Assembly: GCA_000004695.1 (NCBI GenBank)
Contig: CM000153.2
Coordinates: forward strand, 2,080,001 to 2,144,000
Source: Dictyostelium discoideum
Lineage: Eukaryota
DNA length: 64,000 nucleotides
Direction of reading: 5' to 3'
The position numbers were made by a program, and so were the translations under genes. The number at the start of each line of letters is the position of its first letter. Position 1 is the first letter of the stretch. This document shows positions 23,969 through 46,419 of this stretch, piece after piece. A model generated the notes under the pieces. It had not been told where the DNA came from, did no database searches, and worked only from the letters and a program-made list of their open reading frames with translations.

Positions 23969-25585
23969 TTAACATTTCCAAATTTTTATACATTTATCAG
24001 TACTACCTGAGAAAAGAAATTCTTTTGAAGATGTTAAACATGAGATTGAAGATTCATGACCTAATAATAGTGAATTTGAAGAGAGAAGAGGATCCCAACC
24101 TTTTATATTTGAGTCCTTTCCACCAGAGAATATCATTCCATTATGAATACATAAACAATTTACCCAATCATTATGTGCATTGTTTAAAAGTCTATTTTGT
24201 TGATATTGATTAAGTAATGAAAATGTACTATTATCCAATGAAGATGAAAGTGATGATGTAGTACTACTTGGAGCAGATGATGATTTGTTATTATTACTAC
24301 TATTATTATTATTGTTATTATTATTGATAATGTTATTATTATTATTTATAATTAAATTACTATTTGAAGGAGTATTTGATAAAATTGGTACAGTTTGCTG
24401 AGCCAATTGTGTTGTTATTAAATTATTACTATTATTTTCACCATTATTATTAATTAAATTATTAATTGAAGAAACATCCCATCTTTTTATAGTTCTATCT
24501 CTTGAACCACTATAGATAACATCATCCAAGACAGCTATTGAAGTTACACCATCATGATGAGGTGGTTGTAATTTTTGAGCTAAAACAAAACTATCACGAT
24601 GGAATAAATTGATGGTATGATCTCTACTACCGGTCACTAGATATTTGGAAGTTACAGACATTGAAAAGATGGTACCAGTATGATGAGGAGTGGTGGTTAA
24701 TGGTGTTTTCAAAGGTTTTTGCATGTGTCTAATATCCCAAACTTTAAAAGTACCATTTTCAAGGCCACTTACAACATAATTGCCATATGTAACCAAACAA
24801 TTTACATCACTTGGTGTTTTGAATATACAAAGATTGGTATTACCAGGTGAACGAATATCCCAAACTTTAACGGTTCTTTCAGCGCCACCACTAAACATAC
24901 AACCACTTGAACCATTGATACATAATGATCTAACGGGTCCAGGACTACTTAAATCCAACATATTATCACCAGTATGTAAATCCCATAGTTTAATGTTTTT
25001 ATCAGATCCACCACTATACAATGTTGATGGATTTTGTTCATCCAATACCAATGTCAATAAACCACCATCATGACCATTGAATGTCCAATTACAACGCATA
25101 AAATTCTCATCTTCTCTATTCATATTTCTCTTTATTGCCATTAAATAATCATCTGTATTCAATTTATCTCTATATTTCTTTAATCTTGAATCTGGTCTTG
25201 GTTGTGATGCTAGTCTTGTAAAAACATCATTATTATTACTATTATTATTATTATTACCGTTATTTGCTAATGCAGTTGCTAAACCACTTTCTAATGATAA
25301 TGAAAGTGGTGATGATTGAAGTGATGTAGTTTTTCTGTGTGGACGTGTTGGTGAACTTGGTGGTTTTTTAATAGTAATATTATTATTACTATTTATATTT
25401 ATAACACTAAAACCATTATTTGATGAATCATTACCAAGAATATCAACATCTAATAAATCTTTATCAAAAACTGAATGATCTAATTTATCATCAGATATTA
25501 AAAGTAAAGGTGAAGAATTATTATTATTATTATTATTATTGGTATTGTTTAATGGAGCAAATGATTTTGGAACTTGTTGTTTATT

Positions 25586-25619
<34 letters not shown>

Positions 25620-28600
25620 GTTGCTGCTGCAGATGTTAAGAATGATGATGCTGATAATGGTTGTGGTGTTGGTGGATTAAAATAATTAATACCACTCATT
25701 GGAGGGTAACCATTCAATAGTTTATTTTTTTCTCTCTTTTCTTTATCTAATTTAATTTCATCTAATAATTGGTCCAACTTCATACCCAAGCTACTTGTGC
25801 TTGGTGAAGTATACTCTTCTGCTAATTCTTGACTTGATGATAATTGTTGTTGTGATGGTAGTATTGGTTGTGATTTTGCTATATTTACATTATTATTATT
25901 ATTATTAATATTATTTTTATTATTACTTTCACTTATTGCCAATTTAATACCCTCTAATAAATCTGATGTACTACTTCTTTGTTCTAATACTTGTTCAGAA
26001 TTTGATTGTTTTTGTTGTTTTTCTTGTTGTTGTTGTTGTGATTGAAGTGGTTGTGGTGGTTGAATATAAAAATGTTGTGATTTTTGATGTTGTTGTTGAG
26101 ATTGTAAAGTTGGTGGTGTTGGAACATTAATAAATTTAATTTGTTGATTCTTTCTATTGATTTCAGCATATTCTATACAAAGTTCAATTGAAGATTGAAT
26201 TAATTTTGGTAATTTATCGAAACTAGTATTTGATACCATTCTAAGTATTTCAGGTGAATCTAAACAATCGTTTGAAATGATTGTTAAATCTTTTTGACTC
26301 TTTAATATTTTTTCATTTTGTAATTTAATATTTGTTTCCAAGAATTGTGATTGTTCATTGTATTCTGATTTCGAGAGTTTTGATGGTACACTTGTGAATG
26401 CTTTCTTTAAATCATTAGCTTGTCTTACAAAGATTTCTTTATTCTTAAATTCCCTTTGTAAAAGTTCTGTCAATTCATTCTTTTCTAAATTCTTTTGAAT
26501 TTGATGAATTAACCATTCTCTCCAATATGGTACATTTATTGATTTTCTATGTAATAATTTTCTATTTAATTGTTCTGTTGTTGGTGTAGATGTAGATGTA
26601 GAAGTGGTTGTATTATTTGTTGCTGATGTTGAAGTAGTGCTAGTATTAGTAGATGATGACGATGATGATGATGATGATGAATTTGCAGAAGATGCAGAAG
26701 ATGCAGTTGAACCATTTGATGACTTTACACTACCACTACTATTATTATTATTATTATTTGATGGTATAGATTTACTATTAATTGGTTGAATTACTCTTTG
26801 TTTATGAACTTCTATTTCTTTTAATTTCTTTTTATAAGATTCAGATTCATCAGTTTTCTTTTGTAATAATAGATCTTTCTTTTTAGATTGATTTTTAAGT
26901 TGATCAATGATTACTTCAGTTTTTCTAGCTTCACGTTTAAGTGCATCCAATTCTTTAGCTTGAGTTTGTTTTGCATCATCTCGTTTCTTTAATTCATCTC
27001 TCATCTTTTTCAAAAGATCAGATTTTTGTCTCTTTGTATCTTTAATGTCTTGTTGAAGTGAATCGATTTTCTCTTCACTCTTTCTCTTTAAATCCAATAA
27101 ACGTTGATAATCTTTTTTATTTGAACCTGCATGTTGATCCAATTGTTGTTTTAATTCATTCAATTTCTTTTCATAATGTTGAGTTAATCTTAATTTCTCA
27201 TCTTCATAGTATTGATCTTTATCTTTATTATCTTTATCTTTATCCTTATCCTTATCCAATTCTTTTAAGGCTTGATCTTTTTCAACTGTTACTTCTTCCA
27301 ATTGTGATTGTAATTCCTTAACTTTTTGATCAAATTGTTCTTTCATTTGTTGATATTGTTGTTTAGTTTTACTTATTAATTCTAATTCCTCTTCTTTTTC
27401 TGAAATATATTGATTTAAATCTGATAGTTCTTCACTATCATTTTCAAATAATTCAATACCTTCACTTGAATTATTATTATTATTATTATTATTATTGATT
27501 GATTCAAGTTTACCACCTGGTAATAAATTATCTTCAGCCATTGGTAATAATGAATTTGAATTTATAATAACATTTGATGATGAAATTTGAGTTGAAACAG
27601 CTGCCATCATTGGTGTAATTGGCGAAATGGTTGGTTGATTCAATACTGAATTAAATTGTTCGAATAATTCATTAAAATAAGTTTGATCCTTATTTGGTGA
27701 GAAATTATTTATAAAATTTTGTGAAATCTCCTCCAATTGTCTACTTCTATTGGCTAATGCTTTATATTTACTTGTTATCTTATTTGAAATATCTTGAAGC
27801 ATATTATTCTCAAATTCCAATTGTGATACTTTCATACCTAAATCAAATATCTCCTTTTCTTTCTCTTTACTTAAATTTGTAACTATTACTGATGTTGGTG
27901 ATGGTGTTGCTGTATTATTAGTAATTGATGGTGTTGTTGTCAATGATGATGATGATGATGACGACGATGATGACGATGATGATGATGAAATATTTCTAGA
28001 ATTATTCATTTTCACAATTGAAGATTTACTACTATTTGTTGGTGGTAATGAAGAAGATGATGGTGTTCTACTAAATCCACTATTATTTCCACCAACATTT
28101 AATTTATTATTATTACTATTATTATTATTATTACTACTACTATTATTATTATTATTATTTGTTAAAGTTGGTGTTGATAAAGGTGGAGCAGGTGGTATTG
28201 AAACCGTTGGTATTGAAGCTAAAATTGAATTTATATCGCCAATATCCCTACATGTACACTTTTCTAATAATTCTTTTAATGTTTGAATTTGTGTTTTATA
28301 TGTAAGAATTTGTTGTGTAACTGGATCTATATTTACAACTGGTTTATTCATAATATTTCTAGCTCTATATGCATATTTTAATGTCTAAATAAATAAAAAA
28401 AGATTGGTTAATACACACCTAATTGTATATAAATAATATTTGCTGTTTGGTTTATTTACATTTAAAGTTTCTTCAAAATTTGAATCGGCAGGACTAACAC
28501 ATGCAATCATTAAAGTTTTTGAGTTACCACCTAATGATGATTGGAGCATACGTGTTAATTTTGAATCTCTATATGGGATATGTTTTGGTTTAGTTGTTGC

Positions 28601-29407
28601 TCTTCTAGTATCACCTAATGCACTAATAACATTACCCAATGCTAATAAACCACCATTGATATTGATACCCTCTTTTAAACGTTGTCCTTCAGCTTTTGTT
28701 TTCTTTACTCTTTCACTACCTGCTAAATCTACAAAATGAAACATTGATCTAATCGATGGGTTTCTTTCATCCATTGACATTATATCATCATCCTCATCTT
28801 CCTCGTCATCCTCTTCATCTTCATCAATCATAATTGATGAATCGTCATCTTTATTAGGTGATAAAGAATCTGGTGACGATGATTTCTTTTTCTTTTTACC
28901 TTTTGATTGCTTTTTATCATCAGAAGAGGATGATGTCGATGTTGATGATGTTGATGATGATGTAACAGGTGAATTTATCGGAGTTTGTTCAACAATTATT
29001 GAAAATATTGCATGTGATCTACTTGAATGACTATTCATTAAAGTTGAACCAGTAGTTCTAGATTGTGAACCTCTAATTAATGCCTCCTCCATTTGTTGTC
29101 TTGATCTAACGATTTGTTCAACTAATCCTGGTATATAAACTTCACCATTTGATTTCTCACGAATTGGTAAACCACCTGCTGTTGGATAAGGATTTAACAT
29201 ATCTCTAATCTCTTCATTATATAACTCTAAAAATGATACTTTTAATACTAATTGATGCGTATCCTTTTTTCTATCTATCTTATCATATATAAAATCAATA
29301 ACCCTGGGAATTACTCCCAACTCTTCTGTTGGTATACCAATTGTACTTGTTGTACCCATTGTAAATGTTTTACCTATTTTTTTTAAAAAAATATATATAT
29401 TTATTAA

Positions 29408-29471
<64 letters not shown>

Positions 29472-29805
29472 GTTATTGTTATTACTACTCTATAATTAAA
29501 TTAAATTATTTACCTGAACCTGTTTGACCATATGCTAAAATGGTTGAGTTATAACCTTCAAAAAGGCAATCAACTAAATTTGCAACACAATCATCAAAAA
29601 TCTCTTGTTGTCTTGATTTACCATTGAAAACATAATCAAAAGTGAATGTTTGATTATTATCACCCATAATAACTTGTGGTTCTCCATCAACATATTTTAC
29701 AACTTCCATTGACCTTTCTGCTTCTTCTTTCTTTGATAAGGGTCTAACTCTTAATGCAACCCTTACACAATTATTATCATCGGTATTTAATATTGGTGAT
29801 GACAT
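23969..29805 (-). CDS. kif8: Kinesin-4 family motor (KIF21-like) with an N-terminal motor domain, a long coiled coil and C-terminal WD40 repeats. Exons on the minus strand: 29805..29514, 29373..28460 and 28384..23969. Predicted length 1873 aa.
   Basis: Exon 1 encodes [16 protein letters not shown]...ILAYGQTGS and ends g|GTAAAT. Exon 2 supplies GKTFTMG and so completes the P-loop GQTGSGKTFTMG. It continues through SSRSH, VDLAGSE and [41 protein letters not shown] and ends at a GTAAAT donor. Exon 3 continues [18 protein letters not shown] (the kinesin neck motif), then a Lys/Glu-rich coiled coil, then WD40 repeats ([43 protein letters not shown]). The symbol is proposed from the WD40 kinesin-4 architecture and the length. 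Confidence 0.8.
29404..29472. repeat. (ATT)n microsatellite inside intron 1 of the kinesin gene.
   Basis: tattattattatt... lies between the exon 2 acceptor at 29374 and the exon 1 donor at 29513. Confidence 0.85.
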
Positions 29806-30677: not shown

Positions 30678-31280
30678 ATGACAAACCTAGATAATAATAA
30701 TTTAAATGAAGAAATTAAAAATAAATTAGAGAAACAACAAAATCAAAAAGAACAAAAATTAATTATAGTTATAATGGGAGTGAGTGGTAGTGGCAAAACT
30801 ACAATTGGTAATGCTATTGCATCATCATTAGGTTGTGGTTTTAATGATGCAGATGAATTTCATAGTGAAGAGAACAAAGAAAAGATGAGATCAGGTATAC
30901 CTTTAAATGATGATGATAGAAAACCATGGTTATCATCAATTAATAAAAGAATGATTGAATTTTTAAATAATGAAAATGATGGAGCTAATGATCATGTTTT
31001 TACATGTTCAGCTTTGAAATCAACATATAGAGATCAAATATCAAATAATATTAATAAAGATAATCTATTATTCATACTTTTACAAGGAAGTAAACAATTA
31101 TTATCTGAACGTTTACAAAATAGAAAAAACCACTTTTTCAATCCAAATTTATTAGATAGTCAATTATCAATATTAGAATTACCAACCCAATCAGAATTAT
31201 CAAATCATCATTATGCATTCATTGATATTTCAAATTCTGTTGATGAAATTGTTGAAGAAATTTTTAATTATTTAAAATAA
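30678..31280 (+). CDS. Gluconokinase of the GntK/thermoresistant gluconate kinase family. 200 aa, single exon.
   Basis: IIVIMGVSGSGKTTIGNAIASSLGCGFNDADEFHSEENKEKMRSGIPLNDDDRKPWLSSIN matches the family signature GVSGSGKST..G..F.D.D..H...N..KM..G.PL.D.DR.PWL, which combines a P-loop with a gluconate-binding segment. Confidence 0.75.
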   Translation: MTNLDNNNLNEEIKNKLEKQQNQKEQKLIIVIMGVSGSGKTTIGNAIASSLGCGFNDADEFHSEENKEKMRSGIPLNDDDRKPWLSSINKRMIEFLNNENDGANDHVFTCSALKSTYRDQISNNINKDNLLFILLQGSKQLLSERLQNRKNHFFNPNLLDSQLSILELPTQSELSNHHYAFIDISNSVDEIVEEIFNYLK

Positions 31281-31777: not shown

Positions 31778-33587
<1,810 letters not shown>

Positions 33588-34410: not shown

Positions 34411-34969
34411 AAAAAAAAAAAAAAAAATAGTCAATGAAAACTGAAGAATTCTTAGCCTTTTGATTTGTTTGAATTGAATTAGCAACAACTAACAATACGT
34501 TACACTCCTGTTCTTGCACTTGCTACAGATACATACAATAGTGAAAAATATTATTTAATCGATTAAATAATCAAATAATCAAATAATTCTTTGGGTGAAG
34601 ATGGGTTTTTAGGTATTGTTGATAGAGTTAAATTATGATGACTAATTAAATATAGTCCATTTAAATTTTAAATATTGGTCATAAAGATTATCCAGAGAAA
34701 ATAGTAGGATATTAGTAATAGTTTAGGTGATAGAGATTGTATTTGTGGTAATAGTACAAATAGTAGTTCAAGTGGATCAACAAATTTTAATTAAAAATCA
34801 CCTGTTAATAATATTGTTAGTAAATAAAATAAGAAAACATAGGTTTTTAATTTTGAGTATAGTGATGATAGAAATTTATCAATCAAAGAATATTTGAAAA
34901 AGAGGAGATAATAGATAAAAAAACAAAAAAAAAAAAAAATTATAATAAAAATAAAATATAACATTTTAA

Positions 34970-37560
34970 ATTATAAATTTTAAATTAGAAACAGAAATAT
35001 TTTTATTTATAATGAATAAAATTCTATTTAGGGGTTTTAACAAATCTAATCTTTTCTTCTTTGCTCTTTTTGGTTAATTTAATATAAAGAATACCATTAT
35101 TATGAACAAAATGAATATCTTTGGATGATGAAGTCTCAACAACAATGTGTGGAAATATATAAGACCACTCCATTAATTTGTTTTGGTTGAATTTAAAATC
35201 ATCATGGACAATAGTTTTTCCCTCATCATTATCATCATCCCCATTTGGACTAAATGATCTTGGTTTTGTACTAACGATTTTAATTTTCTTTGAATCACTA
35301 ATTTCTTCAATTGTCATTGCCAAATCATTCAAGTCGTATCCTGTACAATCCACATAGATATGGTAGTGGGTATTGTCTTCTTTAACTATTGAAGGCTGAG
35401 TGTTATTTACTTCATCAATAATTCCTACCATATTAAATCTAATGTTTGGACAATATGATAATGTTTCATTTTGAAGGGGTGGAGAAATTACAATGTTTTT
35501 TTTATCAACACTTCTACATAGTTTGAGATTTGGATGATCAATGTAGTATTTAATTAATTTATTTGATGATTCTATTACGTTGTTTACTAAGTCACCACTT
35601 TCTTTTTGAATAGCTGCAATTGATTGGACCCATTCTTTAAGTAATGAGAATGTTGGTACATTTGAAATTTGACCAGCTCTGGACTCTGGTGTTCCATCTA
35701 ATTTATTTTCATCTTGTGCAATTACAACATGTCTTGTACCATCGTCTTTATTGGTCCAGTAATGGCATTTACAACTTAGATTTTCACTTCTCACAGCATT
35801 AAATATAGTTTCAACCTCTTCAACAATAACAGTTTTCAATTTTTCAACAGTTCTTACATGAGAAAGATTATGGACAATAATAACGTTTGAAGCATTTTTT
35901 CCTGCAATTAAAGAATACTAATAAATAATTAATTAGTTTTTTTTTCAATTTAAATATATAATTTAAATATAAAATTATTAATTTATAAATTTACTTTTTG
36001 TTTAACTTGTTTAATGTATGATTGATCATCTCTTGTTAATCTATCAACAACAATTAATACAACATCTGATAAATGTAAAGCCAATTCTTGAAGGAATCTT
36101 TCAGTTGCTTCTGAATCTCTGATTGTGTAAGGTGGTTTAACTGGTTTCTGTGATCCTTGTGTATCTTTTTTTTAATAATTTCAAAAAATAAAAAAAAAAA
36201 TAATAATAAATTTCAATAAATAATAAATTAATTAAATGATAAAAAAATCATAAATACCCAATCCAATTAGAACATCAGACATTGTTGATCTTGAAGAAAC
36301 AACAGATAAACCTTCAGTATGTTGATAATAAGAACTATTCAAATTTAAACCAAATAATCTTGATAGAACATAGCTTTTACCTTTATTATATAGTCCAAGA
36401 GCACATACAATAGCCTTTCTCTTTCCTTGATTTAGATCATTTAATAGTTTTTTTTTTGTTTCACACATTTTTTCATTTGATGGAGCAGCAAAAGATTTGA
36501 TAGGAGCAAAAATTCCTCCTGGATTTTGGGATGTTTTTTCATAATAATCATAATATGGATAAGATATTGGCCATCCGGTTTTAATATCCAATAAATTTTC
36601 AATCTTTACCACCATATCATATAATTCTACTTTTTTATTCGGATCCCATTTAGAAGATATTGGTATGTCATATGGATCCATTGAAAAACCTATAATATTA
36701 TTTACTTTTAACGATCACAACAATTTAAAAGGAACTAATTATTTGAAGTAAATTAATTAATATTAAAATAAAAAAAATAAAAAAAATTTTAAAAACAACC
36801 AGATTAATATATAAATAATAATATGTATAAAAAAAAACAAATAAAAAAATAAATAATTTAATAATATATATATAAAAATGAAATTTTTTTTTTTAAAAAA
36901 AAACAATTTAAATATTTTTGATGTTCAAATAAATTTTATAAATAAATTTATTTTTTAAAAATAAAAAATTTAAATAATAATTAATTTTTAAATTTAATGA
37001 TAATAATAGAAAAAAAAAACAATCAATGATTTTCAAAATTTTATTATAAAATTGAAAGGTTGATAATAAAAATAAAAAAAAAAAGTGTGAATGCCTTAGT
37101 CAAGTTTTTTTTTTTTTTTTTGTGTGTTTGTGTTTTATGTGTGTGTGTGTTTAAGTTTTATGTGTGTGTGTGTTTGTTTATAAAAAATGTGGTTTGTGTG
37201 TTTGATTAGATGTTACTTTAATTTTTGAGATTTCCAAAAAAAAAAAAAATTTTGACTGTTTTTTTAATGAAAATCTCCATTAAAGATCAATGAAAGAATT
37301 TATTCAAAAATTGTATAAAATAATTTTTTATTGTTTTTATTGTTTTTTATTTATAGAAAGGGGTATGATTAATTTTTTAAAAAAATATTATTTGAAAAAA
37401 AAAAAATTTAATAATAGTGTAGTTTTTATTATTAAATCACTGAAAAAAAGATTCAATTAAAAATTAATGGGATAATCTAATTTTAGATAAATTAAATTTG
37501 TGATCAAAGATTACCAACATTACTTAAAAAAATGAGAAATAAATTTAATTCAAATTATAT
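34970..37560. repeat. Unit A of a roughly 3.1-kb direct tandem segmental duplication, comprising the GTPase gene and about 0.85 kb of its 5' flank.
   Basis: It aligns with 38085..40680 over exons, introns, the 3' end (..aaattagaaacagaaatatttt..ctatttaggggttttaacaaatctaatcttttcttctttgctctttttggttaatttaatataaagaataccattattatgaacaaaat) and upstream blocks (aaaattttgactgtt, aatgaaaatctcc, gggataatct, aaaaaaatgagaaa). Confidence 0.7.
35024..36681 (-). CDS. GBP/atlastin-like (dynamin-superfamily-like) P-loop GTPase fused to a novel C-terminal domain, tandem copy A. Exons on the minus strand: 36681..36258, 36164..35995 and 35917..35024. Predicted length 495 aa.
   Basis: G1 is KRKAIVCALGLYNKGKSYVLSRLFGLN (compare GBP1 AIVGLYRTGKSYLMNKLAG). 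A switch-I Thr lies in QHTEGLSVV. The exon 1 donor ttgg|GTATTT (phase 1) joins the acceptor AAAAAG| to give ...DVLIGLDTQGSQKP, which is the G3 DTxG motif. Next comes DSEATERFLQELALHLSDVVLIVVDRLTRDD (GBP-like, with an LTRD-type G4). Exon 3 (YSLIAGKNASNVIIVHNLSH...) encodes a roughly 300-aa domain unrelated to the GBP helical domain. Its C-terminus, DDFKFNQNKLMEWSYIFPHIVVETSSSKDIHFVHNNGILYIKLTKK, is faintly reminiscent of an alpha-crystallin domain. Confidence 0.6.
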
Positions 37561-37827
37561 TTATTTTATTTTATTTTTAATAATAATAAAAATTAATATA
37601 ATAAAATGATTATGATTTGAAACTTTGTATTATGTTTACCGTTACCATTGATCCTGTTAGTCCTTCTGGTATGGACATCATAGAACTTGTGATGCACATT
37701 ATTATTTAATCAATAATATTGATATTGTAGGGAGTTAACATCCCCTATTAATGGCTGGGTATAGTAGAATTGCCATGTTGATTTTGATGTTCATAATTAT
37801 GGCAAAGGTAGTAAAGAGATCAGTTTG

Positions 37828-37862
<35 letters not shown>

Positions 37863-38084
37863 AATAAACAAAATAAATAAAAAAACTAAGGTTATATTGG
37901 TTAATTTTTAAATAAGGATTTTGATATCTGTTTTTTAATTTTTTAATTTTTTTTTAAAGTATCTGGCCAAAAAAATTTATCCTTATGTCCAACTAGTTGC
38001 AAAAAACAACATTAAACTAATGGTTTAAATAGAATTTTTAAAAAAGAGAAGATAATAAATAAAAAACAAAAAAAGTATTATAAA

Positions 38085-40680
38085 AAAAAAATTTAAAATT
38101 AGAAACAGAAATATTTTTTTTATTGAAATAAAACTCTATTTAGGGGTTTTAACAAATCTAATCTTTTCTTCTTTGCTCTTTTTGGTTAATTTAATATAAA
38201 GAATACCATTATTATGAACAAAATCAATATCCTTGGACGATGAAGTCTCAACAACAATATGTGGAAATATATAAGACCACTCCATTAATTTGTTTTGGTT
38301 GAATTTAAAATCATCATGGACAATGGTTTTACCTTTATCATCTTCTTCCCCGTTTGGACTAAATGATCTTGGTTTTGCACTAACAATTTTAATTTGCTTA
38401 GAATCATTAGTTTCTTCAATTGTCATTGCCAAATCATTCAAGTCGTATCCTGTACAATCCACATAGATATGGTAGTGGGTATTATCTTCTTTAACTATTG
38501 AAGGTTGAGTGTTATTTACTTCATCAATAATTCCTACCATATTAAATCTAATGTTTGGATAATATGATAAAGTTTCATTTTGAAGGGGTGGAGAAATTAC
38601 AATGCTTTTTTTATCATCAGTTCTACATAGTTTGAGATTTGGATGATCAATGTAGTATTTAATTAATTTATTTGATGATTCTACAATGCTATTTACTAAG
38701 TCACCACTTTCTTTTTGAATAGCTGCAATTGATTGGATCCATTCTTTAAGTAATGAGAATGTTGGTGCATTTGAAATTTGACCAGCTCTGGACTCTGGTT
38801 TTCCATCTAATCTATTTTCATCTTGTGCAATTACAACATGTCTTGTACCATCGTCTTTATTGGTCCAGTAAGGGCATTTACAATTTGGATTTTCACTTCT
38901 TTTAGCATTAAACAAAGTCTCAACTTCTTCCAAGATAACAGCATCTAATTGTTCAACAGTTCTTACATGCGAAAGATTATGGACAATAATAACGTTTGAA
39001 ACAAGTTTTCCTGCAATTAAAGAATACTAATAAATAATTAATTAGTTTTTTTAAAACAATTAAATTATTTTAAAAAATTTTTAATTTATAAATTTACTTT
39101 TTGTTTAACTTGTTTAATGTATGATTGATCATCTCTTGTTAATCTATCAACAACAATTAATACAACATCTGATAAATGTAAAGCCAATTCTTGAAGGAAT
39201 CTTTCAGTTGCTTCTGAATCTCTGATTGTGTAAGGTGTTTTAACTGGTTTCTGTGATCCTTTAGTGTCTTTTTTTAAAAATAAAAATATTAATAACTTCA
39301 ATAAATAAAAAATAAATTAAATGATTAAATAATAAAAAAATCAAAAATACCCAATCCAATTAGAACATCAGACATTGTTGATCTTGAAGAAACAACAGAT
39401 AAACCTTCAGTATGTTGATAATAAGAACTCTTTAAATTTAAACCAAATAATCTTGATAGAACATAGCTTTTACCTTTATTATATAGTCCAAGAGCACATA
39501 CAATAGCCTTTCTCTTTCCTTCATTAAGATCACCTAATAGTTTTTGTTTTGTTTCATTCATTTTTTCATTTGACGGAGCAATCAAAGATTTGAATGGACC
39601 TAAAATTCCTCCTGGGTTTTGTGCTGTTTTTTCATAATGTTCTGAAAATGGATAGGATATTGGCCATCCGGTTTTAATATCCAATACATTATCAATTTTT
39701 AATACCAAATCATATAATTCTTCTTCTGTCTTTGGATCCCATTTAGTGGATTTTGGTATTTCACATGGATCCATTGATTTGAAAAATCTATAAAATTTTG
39801 TTATTTTTAACGAGTGGTCACAAATAAAGGAACAAATTATTTAGAGCAAATAAATGATTTGGGGCAAATGAATTATTTTTTGAAAAAAAAAAAAAAAAAA
39901 AAAAATAAAATATTAATAAAAATAAAAATATATATTAAAACAAGTAGATTTAAATATAAAATATAAATTTAAATGAAAAAAAAACAAATTTAACAATAAA
40001 TAATTTAATAATATATATAATGAAATTTTTTTTTTAAAAAAAAAAACAATTTAAATATTTTGGATGTTCACACAGAAATAAAAAAATTAATTTTTTAAAA
40101 ATTATTATTTTAAAAAATTAATTTTTTAAAAATAATTTAATTCTAAAAATAGAAAAAAACAATCAATGATTTTCAAATTTTCAAAATTTTATTATGCAAT
40201 TGTAATGTTGATCATAATTTTCTAAATAAAAAAAAAGTGTGTGAATTATTTTTATTTTTTTTTTTTTTTTTTTTTTTTTTATTTTTTTTTTTTATGTGTG
40301 TGTTTATTTATAAAATGTGGTTTGAGTGTTTTTGGTTAGAGGTTAATTTCAAAAAAAAAAAAAATTTTGACTGTTATTTTAATGAAAATCTCCTTTAAAG
40401 ATCAAAGAAATAATTTATTAAAAATAGTAAATATTAATTTTTTATTATTTTTGATTGTTTTATTTATTGAAGGGTATGATTAATTTTAAAAAAAATGATT
40501 ATTTGAAAAAAAAAAAAAAAAAATTAAATACTAGTGTTTTATTATTATTATTATTAAATCACTATAAAAAAGATTCAAAAAAAATTATTGGGATAATCTA
40601 TTTTAAGATAAATGGAGTTATATCAAATATTACCTGGTAATATTAACTTAAAAAAATGAGAAAATAAATTTTATTCAAAT
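38085..40680. repeat. Unit B of the roughly 3.1-kb direct tandem segmental duplication.
   Basis: The evidence is the same as for unit A. Both copies keep intact ORFs and splice sites. Confidence 0.7.
38136..39774 (-). CDS. GBP/atlastin-like P-loop GTPase with a novel C-terminal domain, tandem copy B and a paralog of 35024..36681. Exons on the minus strand: 39774..39351, 39267..39098 and 39026..38136. Predicted length 494 aa.
   Basis: Exon structure, splice sites (ttgg|GTATTT, AAAAAG|, aaa|GTAAAT, AATTAG|) and protein sequence match copy A at about 85-90% identity. G3 is DTKG here versus DTQG in copy A. There is a one-codon deletion in the acidic linker, GEEDDKGK versus GDDDNDEGK. The 5' flank is also conserved. 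Confidence 0.6.
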
Positions 40681-40825
40681 CATATTTATTTTATTTTATT
40701 AAATTTTTATTATTATTATTATTATCATTAATTTTATTTTTATTTTTATTTTTATTTTTATTTTTATTTTTATTATTATTTATTTTTTATTATTATTATT
40801 ATTATTATTTTTATTAGTATTATTA

Positions 40826-41437
40826 TTAACAGAAAATTTCATTATAAAAGTCTCTGTATAATTGAATACCAAGATTGATATCATCAACATTTGAATTTTC
40901 TTTTTCCAAAACATTTAATAATTTGATACCATGACCATTTTCAGAATCTACTGAATCAGCTTCATTATGAATATCAATGTATGTGGTATCTTTAACACCA
41001 ATTTTTGATAATTCATTTTCAAGATCTTTTAAAAATCCAGCTGCTAATTCATTTACAATTAAAAATGATAAAATTACCATTGGTCTATTAATATGATTGT
41101 AGACTTTTTTTGCTATTCTATAACCTTCTGAATAATGATGTAATTTGTATTCCCCCAATTGAGAAAAATAATCCAAACATAAAATTGAATGATTACCTTC
41201 ACCACTAAGACCAAACATTTCATCCTTACAATTTTCTTCAGTTAATTGACCACCAATTTTTTTGATTAACAATGAATTTACCCACATTGTAAAATGAGGT
41301 TGGATTGCTTGAGCATATATTTGAAGATTATCAATTGTATATTTGTAATTTTTTCTATCTTCTTCAATTACTCTTTCCATTTCCCTGTATACTTCATCTC
41401 TTTTATTATTTTTTACATACATTATATTTTCAACCAT
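40826..41437 (-). CDS. Hypothetical protein, 203 aa, single exon. It may have a heme-oxygenase-like or TenA-like helical fold.
   Basis: The ORF-track start is a TTG. The first ATG gives MVENIMYVKNNKRDEVYREMERVIEEDRKNYKYTIDNLQIYAQAIQPHFTMWVNSLL...LCLDYFSQLGEYKLHHYSEGYRIAKKV...DIHNEADSVDSENGHG. It is non-repetitive with compositionally normal coding. The fold suggestion is speculative. Confidence 0.4.
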   Translation of the reverse strand: MVENIMYVKNNKRDEVYREMERVIEEDRKNYKYTIDNLQIYAQAIQPHFTMWVNSLLIKKIGGQLTEENCKDEMFGLSGEGNHSILCLDYFSQLGEYKLHHYSEGYRIAKKVYNHINRPMVILSFLIVNELAAGFLKDLENELSKIGVKDTTYIDIHNEADSVDSENGHGIKLLNVLEKENSNVDDINLGIQLYRDFYNEIFC

Positions 41438-43219: not shown

Positions 43220-44500
43220 ATGTATATATTGAATAATATTATTAATAATAATGAAAATAATTTAGATTATATTGAAAATTTATTTTTTAAAGTTTTTAGA
43301 AATAAATATTTAAGATATAATATATCAAGACAATTAAAATTATATCAAAAGATTAATAAATTCTCATCGAATGAGATTAATTCTTTCAATATTGATACTT
43401 TGAATAATTTTCCATATAGAGAATATTTATTAGATTTACATATTGGAGTATTTGGATTATCAGTTGATCCAATAGAGGGAACGATCTTATTAAACAAATC
43501 ACAAGCAAGTCATAAATGCGATTATCCAATCCCAGAGAATTGTATTCCATCATCAGTTATTAGAATAACAATTAATATTGATAGAGCAATTTCAAAGAAT
43601 GTATTACCATCTAATATAGTTTCATTAAATTTTGGTTATTGTTTCAATCAAATTATTGAACCTTTCACTCTACCAAATACAATTGAAACCATTAACTTTG
43701 GATATATGTTTAATCAAGAAATTAATAAAGATTGTCTCCCAAAAAATTTAAAAACTTTATACTTGGGTTACTCATTCGATAAAACAATTGGAAAGGCTGT
43801 TTTACCAAACTCATTAACCTCTTTGAAATTTTCAAATAATTTCAATCAACCCATTGAAAGTGGTACTCTACCATTAGGTTTGACTGAACTTATTTTTGGT
43901 AATAAATGGAATCAAAGATTTAAAAAAAATTCAATTATAATACCACCAAATGTAAAAATTTTAAAACTAGGTTACAAATTTGATCAAATTATAAAACCAG
44001 GTACTATTCCAGCATCAGTTACTGATCTTTGTATTCAAGGTCAATTTAATAAACCATTTCTAATTGGTAGTATTCCAAATTCAGTAAAGAAATTAACTAT
44101 TGAAGGAAAATACAACCAATGTTTAAAAGCTGGAATCATTCCATCATCAGTTACAAACCTATGTTTTTCAAATAGTTTTAATCAACCACTTTATCCGGGT
44201 TGTATTCCAATGGGTATTACAACACTTTACATTGGTAATAGTTTTAATCAACCATTACATAAAAATAGTATTCCAGAATCAGTAACCTCATTAACATTAG
44301 GTAATTCTTTCAATCAACCAATTATTGATGTAATTCCACAATCTGTTAAAACTTTATCAATATCTTCACTTTATAATAATCATATAATATCTGATACTTC
44401 AAAAATTCCAAATTCAATTGAAACTTTAATTATAGCTGGTAAATTTAATATCACTTTACCAAATTTATTTTCAAATTCAAAATTAATTTTATTAAAATAG
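43220..44500 (+). CDS. FNIP-repeat protein, 426 aa.
   Basis: More than ten tandem copies of the roughly 22-aa Dictyostelium FNIP repeat are present, for example LNFGYCFNQIIEPFTLPNTIETINFGYMFNQEINKDCLPKNLKTLYLGYSFDKTIGKAVLPNSLTSLKFSNNFNQPIESGTLP. The pattern is FNQPI..G.LP.SLT.L.FG..FNQ. Confidence 0.75.
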   Translation: MYILNNIINNNENNLDYIENLFFKVFRNKYLRYNISRQLKLYQKINKFSSNEINSFNIDTLNNFPYREYLLDLHIGVFGLSVDPIEGTILLNKSQASHKCDYPIPENCIPSSVIRITINIDRAISKNVLPSNIVSLNFGYCFNQIIEPFTLPNTIETINFGYMFNQEINKDCLPKNLKTLYLGYSFDKTIGKAVLPNSLTSLKFSNNFNQPIESGTLPLGLTELIFGNKWNQRFKKNSIIIPPNVKILKLGYKFDQIIKPGTIPASVTDLCIQGQFNKPFLIGSIPNSVKKLTIEGKYNQCLKAGIIPSSVTNLCFSNSFNQPLYPGCIPMGITTLYIGNSFNQPLHKNSIPESVTSLTLGNSFNQPIIDVIPQSVKTLSISSLYNNHIISDTSKIPNSIETLIIAGKFNITLPNLFSNSKLILLK

Positions 44501-45011: not shown

Positions 45012-46419
45012 ATGACAACAGAAAAAAACCCTCTCAAATTAACAACAAATAAAGTAAAATTATTTATATTAATTTTACTTGTTTTTTCATTTTATTTATT
45101 GGTTGTTAACGTTTTTGGTGATTTTTCATTTGAAATTAAAAATAGTTATGGTAATCATTATTATTTATATAAAATATATATATATATTTAAAAAATTAAA
45201 TCTTCTCAAGTTTAATTAATTTTTTTTTAAAAAACAAAAAGACTATAATAAAATTTTAATAATTGCAGCAGATAATTATTTTAATGAAAAAGAAGTAAAT
45301 GAATCATTTAGTAAATGTTCAAAATTTAAATGTAAAATTGAAATACATTCGGAGTTTTCAAATGAAAAAGCGGAAAGTGCCCAAGCAATAATTTACTTTT
45401 TTTCACAATATCAAGAGAGTAGTAATAAAATTTATAACAATACATTAAAAAGATATAATCCTAGGCAAATTACAATTGGATGGACAATGGAATCAGGTGG
45501 TCTTTATAGATTTGAAGGTGATTCTAATTTCATAATATCAAATTTTAACATTACAGTAGGTTATCCAAGAGTGAATGATTTTAATAAACAAACACATATA
45601 TATGTTCCCTATGGTCCAGTTGAATACAGTGGTTCAGATTCATATGCTCACTCTGCTAAATTTGATAGAATTAAAGAAATACCATCAAAAAGGAATAATA
45701 GCATTGTTTGGATTTCAAGTAATTGTTGGCATGAAGATTACAAAAGAGTTTATTTAATGAGGAGTATAATGAATATTACCAAAGTAGATTCATATGGTAG
45801 TTGTTTAAATAATATAGATTTCACTGACCAAGACAAATTAATCAACTCTAAACATGATCAAAAAATGGATGTATTAAAAAGATATAATTTTGCTATTGCT
45901 TTTGAAAATAGGTAAAATTTTTTACTTATAAATCCCTCTTCCTTTCTTATTTATCTTTAACTAATTTTATTTTATTATTATTATTATTTTTTTTTTTTTT
46001 TTTTTTTTTTTTTAATGACAATATTAAATAGTTTATGTAAAGATTATATCACTGAAAAATTATGGGAGAGTTTATCAGTTGGTACAATCCCTATTTATTT
46101 AGGTGCACCAAATATAATGGAATTCTTACCAGATCCAGATTCAATAATAAATGTTAGAGATTTTAAATCAGTTAATGATCTTGTTGATTATATAAAAAAG
46201 GTGGAAAATGACCAAAACCTTAGATTAAAACATTTAAAATGGATAAAAATAAAAAAATGGTCAAAAGAATTCCAAAATATTTACGATGAATCTGTTAATA
46301 ATTTGGACCCACTTTGTTCAATTTGTTCAAAAATTGCTTCAAAAAAAATATTAATTCCCAAACAATCCCCTTTTTTAGCTGGTAATGAAAGTAATTTTAC
46401 TTTACCTTTATTAAAATAA
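45012..46419 (+). CDS. Alpha-1,3-fucosyltransferase of the GT10 family, a type II membrane protein. Exons: 45012..45150, 45242 (or alternatively 45269)..45911 and 46032..46419. Predicted length 398 aa.
   Basis: Exon 1 encodes MTTEKNPLKLTTNKVKLFILILLVFSFYLLVVNVF, a short cytoplasmic tail followed by a signal-anchor helix. The donor tatg|GTAATC sits at 45151. Exon 2 ends ...KRYNFAIAFENag|GTAAAA. Exon 3 begins tag|tLCKDYITEKLWESLSVGTIPIYLG. The junction reconstitutes FAIAFENSLCKDYITEKLWE, which is the FucT signature Y.FYLAFENS...DYITEK(L/F)W. Confidence 0.7.

Follow-up and report, generated by a model that had tools for sequence, protein, structure and literature searches.

A tandem gene pair of Dictyostelium discoideum predicted to join a large G domain to an alpha-crystallin domain

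What do two adjacent, closely similar genes of Dictyostelium discoideum encode, and do their products belong with the guanylate-binding proteins (GBPs) of cell-autonomous immunity? The genes, DDB_G0284527 (copy A) and DDB_G0284529 (copy B; Q54PI2), lie on the minus strand of a 64,000-nucleotide stretch of strain AX4 (GCA_000004695.1, contig CM000153.2, positions 2,080,001 to 2,144,000; about 22% G+C), which we call the window and whose first letter is position 1 of all coordinates below. They are a diverged tandem pair from an uncharacterised, unnamed eukaryotic family, and their products are four-part proteins: an N-terminal YD...GW motif, a G domain modelled at residues ~89-335, an alpha-crystallin domain at ~370-481, and a short basic tail.

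A first-pass annotation, made from the letters of the window, had proposed two adjacent minus-strand genes of three exons and about 495 residues each, with common intron positions and splice-site hexamers, and the spliced models bear this out. Copy A (35024-36681; exons 36681-36258, 36164-35995 and 35917-35024) encodes 495 residues that match the database protein of DDB_G0284527 with 100% identity and coverage; copy B (38136-39774; exons 39774-39351, 39267-39098 and 39026-38136) encodes 494, and an exact-sequence look-up of its product returns DDB_G0284529. Both splice in frame through GT..AG introns at identical positions, with the donor hexamers GTATTT and GTAAAT in either copy; intron 2 offers two candidate acceptors, only one of which leaves the frame open. 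Both genes are intact and are already annotated as encoding a "hypothetical protein." The two products are 88% identical (435/495), within the 85-90% estimated at first, and the motifs quoted then (GLYNKGKSYVLS, DTQG in copy A against DTKG in copy B, FLQELALHLSDVVLIVV, and NNGILYIKLTKK) are all present.

Domain architecture and nucleotide site

At the level of sequence the G domain announces itself through its first motifs. Pfam GBP (PF02263) scores 24.0 bits in copy A and 21.5 in copy B against a cut-off of 21.1, so the hidden Markov model match anticipated near residues 80-200 does occur, but it is limited to residues 76-147 (G1 to G3; model positions 7-85 of 264). The same model is matched by 12 of 12 close relatives (best E 4.1e-7), and Pfam MMR_HSR1 falls just under its cut-off for the window proteins. 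Searched as a single sequence against the PDB, the protein reaches human GBP1 and GBP5 (hGBP1, hGBP5) at E ~0.04 over residues 89-146; the hGBP1 alignment pairs GLYNKGKSYVLSRL here with GLYRTGKSYLMNKL there, and HTEGLS with HTKGIW. A profile built from 40 family members finds GBP2, GBP5, and GBP1 at E 1.6e-9 to 4e-8, again over G1-G3 only, together with Sey1 at 9e-5 and, more weakly, Der and Era. Neither the helical stalk, PF02841, nor the three-helix bundle and transmembrane segments of atlastins has a Pfam match in the window proteins or in the 12 close relatives.

Beyond G3 we rely on two AlphaFold models, one built with 12 sequences (predicted local distance difference test score, pLDDT, 67.6) and one with 40 (pLDDT 79.4; predicted template-modelling score, pTM, 0.72). 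Because the two agree on topology, residues ~89-335 are read as one large G domain of the GBP/atlastin/SMG9 class, predicted at 35507-36417 (minus strand, spanning both introns) in copy A and, by its 88% identity to copy A, at 38616-39510 (minus strand) in copy B. The order of elements common to both models is beta1 (90-95), alpha1 (102-109), beta2 (125-129), beta3 (138-143), alpha2 (156-173), beta4 (176-181), alpha3 (186-201), beta5 (210-216), and alpha4 (222-237), followed by three further strands within 239-265 and by helices at 278-301 and 308-320. When the modelled domain is compared with the PDB, its best structural neighbours are SMG9, RNF112, GBP2, and the atlastins; 228 residues align structurally to SMG9, which is nearer than any GBP. 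The first-pass annotation had placed a GB1/RHD3-type G domain in the N-terminal half, followed by a domain of some 300 residues of unknown type. The GB1/RHD3 likeness holds, in sequence over G1-G3; the boundary does not, since the G domain reaches ~335, and the supposed new domain resolves into the remainder of the G domain and an alpha-crystallin domain at ~370-481.

The supposed new domain had been described as ending in a faintly alpha-crystallin-like segment, a description that proves too cautious. A Foldseek search of the PDB with the first AlphaFold model returns mostly alpha-crystallin domains of small heat-shock proteins (sHSPs), all at probability 1.0 (among them E. histolytica HSP18.5 at E 1.7e-4, S. 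pombe Hsp16, HspA of Xylella and Xanthomonas, MjHSP16.5, and wheat HSP16.9), and the N-terminal part of the same model is matched by atlastin-1 and SMG9. The family profile picks out S. pombe Hsp16 (E 4.6e-13) along with over 30 further sHSP structures, and it matches sHSPs specifically, not p23/CS domains. The segment NNGILYIKL is the conserved beta9 NG(V/I)L motif: N472-G473-I474-L475-Y-I-K-L fits the form xNG(V/I)Lx(I/V), and G473 is kept in 102 of 109 aligned relatives. UniRef, too, names Q54PI2 a "SHSP domain-containing protein." Judged by these models and profiles, residues ~370-481 of copy A (35069-35404, minus strand, including N472-G-I-L475 of beta9) and ~370-480 of copy B (38181-38513, minus strand) are a genuine sHSP alpha-crystallin domain. 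A long, poorly ordered loop, 418-445, separates modelled strands 407-417 and 446-453, at the place where non-metazoan sHSPs carry their swapped beta6 strand. In the basic tail there is a loose I-R-F at 487-489, inconsistently conserved and in a region of pLDDT below 50, so that an IxI motif is uncertain.

The likeness to sHSPs such as S. pombe Hsp16, M. jannaschii HSP16.5, wheat HSP16.9, and, in D. discoideum, HSP48 and the products of the hspG genes lies in the C-terminal beta-sandwich of ~110 residues and its NG(I/V)L motif. Unlike sHSPs, which span 12-43 kDa and begin with a disordered region, the window proteins are 57 kDa and carry a large, folded NTPase domain in that region's place. Regulation offers a further likeness to HSP48, in that the window genes are developmentally regulated rather than obviously heat-shock driven (PMC6584373).

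The remaining conserved element is the N-terminal motif at residues ~19-52 (Y21-D22 ... G36-W37; 36526-36627, minus strand, in copy A), recognised among 161 relatives aligned to the family profile. Y21, D22, G36, and W37 are near-invariant, in 130-136 of the 161; the G core is found in 160 of these sequences, the second half of the large G domain in 151, the YD...GW motif in 106, and the alpha-crystallin domain in 91. At E <=1e-3, <=1e-10, and <=1e-30 an exhaustive profile search retains 1,437, 796, and 79 cluster representatives, respectively. Word-indexed searches returned only dictyostelid proteins and one Rotaria protein (PF01926 with PF00011), and a second such search with the 40-sequence profile returned the same set and one metagenome protein. 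Among the named sources are Acytostelium, Heterostelium, D. purpureum, Paramoeba atlantica, the euglenid Ploeotia vitrea, the ciliate Furgasonia blochmanni, and the bdelloid rotifers Rotaria and Didymodactylos; the remaining relatives are metagenome or transcriptome proteins. Names within the family are automatic, for example "SHSP domain-containing protein," "Guanylate-binding protein ...," or "G domain-containing protein."

Many relatives extend the N-terminus in other ways. A hydrophobic Ala/Gly/Leu-rich stretch, possibly a membrane anchor or targeting signal, opens P0015, P0022, P0024, and P0082, and a coiled coil of 150-450 residues precedes the G domain in P0028, P0068, P0090, P0106, P0117, and P0135. 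The Dictyostelium proteins have neither.

Within the G domain the residues that are invariant or nearly so are G96, G101, K102, T122, G124, S126, D142, G145, D188, Q189, H214, N215, H261, and N284, with N99 (121/161) also counted among the conserved residues of the nucleotide site. The phosphate-binding set comprises the P-loop GxxNxGKS (G96-LYNKGK-S103; 36373-36396, minus strand, in copy A), switch-I Thr122 in HTEG, and DxxG, and from these residues the machinery for binding phosphate and Mg2+ looks intact. In the hGBP1 alignment Asn99 stands opposite the cis arginine finger of GBPs and atlastins (hGBP1 R48, atlastin-1 R77); position 99 is Asn in 121 relatives, Asp in 22, and Arg in none. An Asn at this point belongs to the signature of potassium (K+)-dependent GTPases, GXXNXGK[ST], in which it contacts K+ in MnmE and FeoB and a second Asn at K+5 stabilises the K-loop (PMC3466195). 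With these TEES/HAS GTPases (MnmE, FeoB, EngA/Der, Era) the family shares the P-loop GxxNxGK[ST] and, in its majority, the second Asn (residue 107: Asn in 96 of 161, Ser in 29), besides the near-threshold MMR_HSR1 match and the PDB matches to Der and Era. It differs from them in having no NKxD, and the dictyostelid members, those of the window included, have Ser at K+5.

The G4 position calls for a correction. LTRD (184-187) had been proposed as G4; it follows beta4 and opens alpha3 in both AlphaFold models, and we have ruled it out. When G4 is located as the beta5-alpha4 loop (definition from PMC5473137), the G4 position is occupied by H214-N-L-S-H218 at the end of beta5, by the secondary structure of the models at 35858-35872 (minus strand) in copy A and by comparison with copy A at 38967-38981 (minus strand) in copy B. 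This loop has no Asp of the (T/R)(L/V)RD kind; His stands at the position that specifies guanine. All 157 relatives aligned here have both H214 and N215. Position 218, which corresponds to the Asp of NKxD or TLRD, varies over the family (D 48, N 25, H 24, E 18) and is His in all dictyostelid members except Acytostelium. Two further residues, His261 (in RHVV) and Asn284 (in AGxxxN), encoded around 35662-35731 in copy A, are invariant in 152 of 152 aligned relatives; they are candidates for base or ribose contacts that replace the canonical G4 and G5.

At G3 the two copies differ by a single nucleotide, C in copy A against A in copy B. Copy A has DTQG (36154-36164, minus strand; the Asp142 codon is split by intron 1, and Gln144 is CAA at 36159-36157), copy B has DTKG (39257-39267, minus strand; Lys144 is AAA at 39262-39260), and the lysine had been taken for a derived change of a catalytic or switch residue and a sign that the paralogs were diverging in function. 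The outgroups, the gene tree, and the variability of the position all rule this out. Every outgroup has Lys144 (D. citrinum, D. dimigraforme, D. purpureum, Heterostelium, Acytostelium), and Gln is confined to the copy-A clade; it follows that Lys is ancestral and Gln derived. Across the 161 relatives the position is Ala in 107, Lys in 21, Glu in 9, and Gln in 7, and since it varies in this way it is not a conserved catalytic residue. The substitution of Gln for Lys in copy A is probably minor.

Duplication, retention, and expression of the two copies

Self-BLAST of 32-43 kb finds one repeat pair, 34927-37575 and 38040-40700, of 85.4% identity over 2,742 columns; the remaining self-matches in that interval are low-complexity A/T repeats only. 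The unit is ~2.65 kb, with copy B followed by copy A. Each unit consists of the gene with its flanks, which are 894 bp upstream and ~97 bp on the 3′ side in unit A (34927-37575, minus strand) and 926 bp upstream and ~96 bp on the 3′ side in unit B (38040-40700, minus strand). The earlier proposal of duplicated 3′ ends and ~0.85 kb of duplicated upstream sequence is thus upheld, at ~0.9 kb upstream and ~96 bp of 3′ flank. Ungapped identity between the copies is 82% in the upstream segments (894 and 926 bp), 90% in exon 1, 97.6% in exon 2, 93.8% in exon 3, 88-89% in the introns, and 79% in the ~96 bp of 3′ flank, and the noncoding parts differ by many insertions and deletions.

Could the repeat be an error of assembly, or one copy a decaying pseudogene? 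The sole point in favor of such a reading, to which we give almost no credence, is that a near-tandem repeat lies here in a genome of A/T-rich, low-complexity sequence. A DNA divergence of 15% between the copies, beside the many noncoding indels, shows that the repeat is not an artefact, and both frames are intact, with a ratio of nonsynonymous (dN) to synonymous (dS) divergence of ~0.3-0.5. Furthermore, an independent assembly of the sister species D. cf. discoideum (GCA_054859205.1) has the same B-then-A pair among the same neighbours, the order there (GT10, a 443-residue gene, a 201-residue gene, B-type, A-type, a 505-residue gene) being that of the window, and both gene ids are among the differentially expressed genes in RNA-seq. 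Since A-type and B-type genes are both present in D. cf. discoideum, the duplication predates a split within the D. discoideum species complex. A neighbour-joining tree agrees in grouping copy A with ACTFIW_001915 and ACTFIY_012259 and copy B with ACTFIY_012258, with ACTFIZ_000972, D. citrinum, and D. dimigraforme outside both groups. The duplication, which had been called recent, is therefore confirmed as a tandem duplication, and its recency has to be qualified: dS is 0.10-0.19, and the event is older than the species-complex split.

Overall dN is 0.053-0.059 and dN/dS 0.28-0.54. The ratio is lowest in the alpha-crystallin domain (0.165), and constraint is weakest over the first 88 residues (0.66) and, in the second half of the G domain, over residues 221-340 (0.70); no region compared reaches 1. 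By these ratios both copies have been kept under purifying selection since the duplication, which in itself is an ordinary tandem duplicate so retained.

Exon 2 (35995-36164 and 39098-39267) stands out for its 97.6% identity, and in the G core dS falls to 0.045, compared with 0.12-0.23 elsewhere. Either unusually strong constraint that extends to synonymous sites or gene conversion over a very short stretch could explain this; conversion over a long stretch is unsupported, because the introns on both sides are only 88-89% identical. Upstream of the genes a microsatellite has been exchanged, with (CA)n / ACACACA in copy A (37110-37190) against a long poly-A in copy B (40250-40300), and this is the lowest-identity 100-bp window of the repeat (56%). 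The units are separated by a unique 464-bp spacer (37576-38039; no strand assigned) that has no self-match, and in which a tRNA, an Rfam family, and an open reading frame (ORF) of at least 35 residues were looked for and none was found; the single Rfam match from the search of locus and spacer for noncoding RNA (E 0.85; 26 bits, where the gathering score is 92) is noise. Inside the spacer, at ~37600-37850, lies a block of ~250 bp whose A/T content is clearly below that of the sequence around it. Nothing corresponds to this block downstream of copy A, and it may be a relic of something at the duplication junction.

Tandem expansion has occurred elsewhere in the family. In D. purpureum, GL870955.1 (L002 2286-10071) carries three tandem paralogs of 489, 492, and 493 residues beside patatin and L-type lectin genes, and a fourth, DICPUDRAFT_148758, lies on another scaffold. 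As the neighbourhood of this array is a different one, the expansion there arose independently.

Developmental RNA-seq (PMC4403905, supplementary file 7) lists the two genes on neighbouring rows of UP_Hr08_gradual; UP_Hr07_gradual also contains copy B, and DOWN_Hr12_gradual contains copy A. From their common presence in UP_Hr08_gradual it follows that both are transcribed and that they are induced together, at about the time of aggregation and mound formation. Expression of the two sets in at ~7-8 h of starvation-induced development, and copy A is down again by ~12 h, a pattern that points to a transient developmental or proteostasis role, not to a documented anti-bacterial one.

These data bear on the suggestion, made in the first-pass annotation, of a role in immunity. 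In its strongest form the pair would be true GBP-type dynamin-like GTPases of cell-autonomous immunity, duplicated and altered at G3 in an arms race and equipped with a novel C-terminal effector. The Pfam GBP scores above cut-off, the matches of the family profile to GBPs, the GBP/atlastin-like fold, the recurrence of tandem arrays (the three paralogs of D. purpureum), and the relatively high dN/dS of the N-terminal region and the second half of the G domain can all be enlisted for it. Against this, the proteins lack an arginine finger, a TLRD-type G4, a helical stalk, and PF02841; SMG9 is a nearer structural neighbour than any GBP; the variable G3 position has Lys as its ancestral state; dN/dS is below 1 in all regions; and regulation is developmental. 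The supplements of three studies of the response to bacteria or mycobacteria (PMC7078664, PMC10181826, bioRxiv 10.1101/590810) contain neither gene id, so that these offer no link to infection; because the files may be partial, this is weak negative evidence, and its weakness counts against the reading that we prefer. The field, moreover, counts gnbp (DDB_G0281639) alone as the D. discoideum GBP homologue, as reviews and a 2025 study state (PMC8565484, PMC12040241). Gnbp resembles the window proteins in having a GBP-type G domain without the stalk architecture of mammalian GBPs (PMC8565484). Its identity to human GBP3 is 26% (E 3e-38; PMC12040241). From GBPs the window proteins have diverged much further; they appear soluble by sequence and end in an alpha-crystallin domain. 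The pair are not classical immune GBPs, and the immune reading, which is without positive support beyond the fold, strikes us as improbable.

A nucleotide-regulated sHSP-like protein?

By definition, sHSPs are nucleotide-independent holdases, and GBPs and atlastins are nucleotide-driven assembly machines; here the two textbook types are joined. We suggest, with somewhat more confidence than doubt, that the fusion of a GBP/atlastin-class G domain to an sHSP domain makes a nucleotide-regulated, sHSP-like holdase or scaffold. The G domain would bind a nucleoside triphosphate (NTP) and dimerise through its nucleotide face, as the G domains of GBP, atlastin, and MnmE type do, and this assembly would be coupled to an alpha-crystallin domain that dimerises and binds clients. 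The outcome would be a nucleotide-gated holdase or scaffold, unlike the classical sHSPs. If hydrolysis occurs at all, a monovalent cation bound to the P-loop Asn, or a partner protein, would be a likelier aid to it than an arginine finger, and the preferred nucleotide may be GTP or ATP, as for SMG9. A more specific version is that the family forms an undescribed and widespread class in which a P-loop-Asn (cation-finger) G domain gates both the oligomerisation and the client binding of an alpha-crystallin domain; this we put forward only tentatively.

GBPs and atlastins (hGBP1/2/5, ATL1/3, Sey1, RNF112) resemble the window proteins in G1-G3 sequence, as the PF02263 score above cut-off and the family-profile E of 1.6e-9 attest. 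Unlike them, the window proteins have Asn for the cis arginine finger, HNLSH for T(L/V)RD, and a shorter G domain between G3 and G4. They also have no middle domain or helical stalk and neither a transmembrane segment nor a lipid anchor; the alpha-crystallin domain follows instead.

The main rival to our proposal takes SMG9 for its model. In it the G domain would be a pseudo-GTPase or static nucleotide binder that serves dimerisation or docking, and the alpha-crystallin domain an HSP20/p23-like interaction module, not a chaperone. SMG9, of the SMG1-SMG8-SMG9 kinase complex, likewise combines a GBP/atlastin-like G fold with the loss of both arginine finger and G4 Asp, and it has no detectable GTPase activity (PMC5473137); its base specificity is relaxed, and it co-purifies with ATP (PMC9162471). 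In the window proteins His218 replaces the specificity Asp and Ser107 the second Asn of the cation signature, both of which would suit such a role. Other features do not suit it: K102, T122, D142, G145, and N99, residues usually lost in pseudo-GTPases, are invariant or largely kept across the deep family, and the conserved catalytic-site residues argue for real nucleotide chemistry. The finger position is Gly in SMG9 and Asn in the window proteins, and in switch II SMG9 has a Pro where they have Gly. Kinship in sequence goes undetected, there being no Pfam Smg8_Smg9 match and SMG9 being absent from the 60 best PDB matches listed, and SMG9 is an obligate heterodimer with SMG8 that has no alpha-crystallin domain. 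That domain, finally, is the most constrained part of the window proteins and matches sHSPs, not p23/CS. We regard this alternative as rather unlikely, if a serious one.

Several points weigh against the nucleotide-regulated chaperone that we favor. The coupling of its two domains is drawn from architecture alone. Lacking a finger and carrying His in place of the G4 Asp, the G domain could be a non-hydrolysing nucleotide sensor; the dictyostelid members carry Ser107 in place of the second Asn of the K+ signature, and switch I, where a K-loop would lie, is modelled with low confidence. Likeness in sequence to GBPs ends at G3: a family profile of the stretch from G3 to residue 300 gives only chance-level PDB matches (E >=0.24; AGR2/3 and an ABC ATPase) and no aid in aligning G4 to GBP or atlastin. 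Pfam HSP20 (PF00011), suggested at the outset as a check, gives a divided answer, in that it is passed by 2 of 12 close relatives (4.3e-8) and spans nearly the whole model in the window proteins (positions 2-93 of 102 in copy B), but scores 13.8 bits in copy A and 15.8 in copy B, under its cut-off of 20.8. Neither 0.9-kb upstream region holds a three-unit heat-shock element (at most one mismatch; the window background is 0.30 per kb per strand), and on this ground we reject classical heat-shock control. The literature searched gave no biochemical, genetic, or localisation data for any family member; it describes no fusion of a GTPase to an alpha-crystallin domain, and we found in it no mention of either gene id or of Q54PI2. 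A survey of D. discoideum alpha-crystallin proteins names other genes, not these two, in its Table 1 (PMC6584373).

If the more specific version of the proposal is true, these would be the first sHSPs whose holdase activity is directly coupled to the binding or hydrolysis of NTP, and the family would be a new branch of the dynamin-like GTPase superfamily in amoebozoans, ciliates, euglenids, and bdelloid rotifers. The conserved fusion, present in 91 of the 161 relatives of a family of 1,437 representatives, is a natural test of nucleotide control over alpha-crystallin assembly. The repertoire of G domains is widened by GBP/atlastin/SMG9-like domains that do without an arginine finger, in which the invariant His-Asn of the G4 loop, His261, and Asn284 mark an uncharacterised nucleotide pocket. 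D. discoideum, an organism said to have a single GBP, gains two GBP-fold proteins, and its set of alpha-crystallin proteins gains two members, both encoded by genes that are amenable to knockout.

Neighbouring genes

The genes around the pair were examined (haem-oxygenase-like, FNIP, GT10, Ost-alpha, shikimate-kinase-like, and kinesin) and give no functional clue to the GTPase-sHSP pair. Directly upstream of copy B, a gene of 201 residues (40829-41437, minus strand) has a sub-threshold match to Pfam Haem_oxygenas_2, a family of iron-containing redox enzymes (E 6e-5; 23.3 against 28.9 bits), and its position is kept in D. cf. discoideum. Beyond it lie a gene for a protein of 13 FNIP repeats (43220-44500, plus strand; E 7e-132) and an intron-split GT10 fucosyltransferase gene (45487-46419, plus strand).

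On the other side, ORFs for a kinesin motor domain (28385-29359 and 29506-29805) stand directly upstream of an ORF of 1,460 residues (23969-28351, minus strand) in which coiled coil and WD40-like repeats are recognisable by visual inspection; the ORFs in 23969-29805 (minus strand) are probably exons of one large kinesin gene. They are followed by a gene for a shikimate-kinase-like P-loop kinase (30678-31280, plus strand) and one for a membrane protein of the Ost-alpha / Solute_trans_a family (31778-33587, minus strand). A poly-Leu ORF at 32377-32916 is an (AAT)n-type repeat intron of the Ost-alpha gene, read through by the ORF finder, and repeats of this family also match the tract of low complexity (40700-40830) by which the duplication is bounded.

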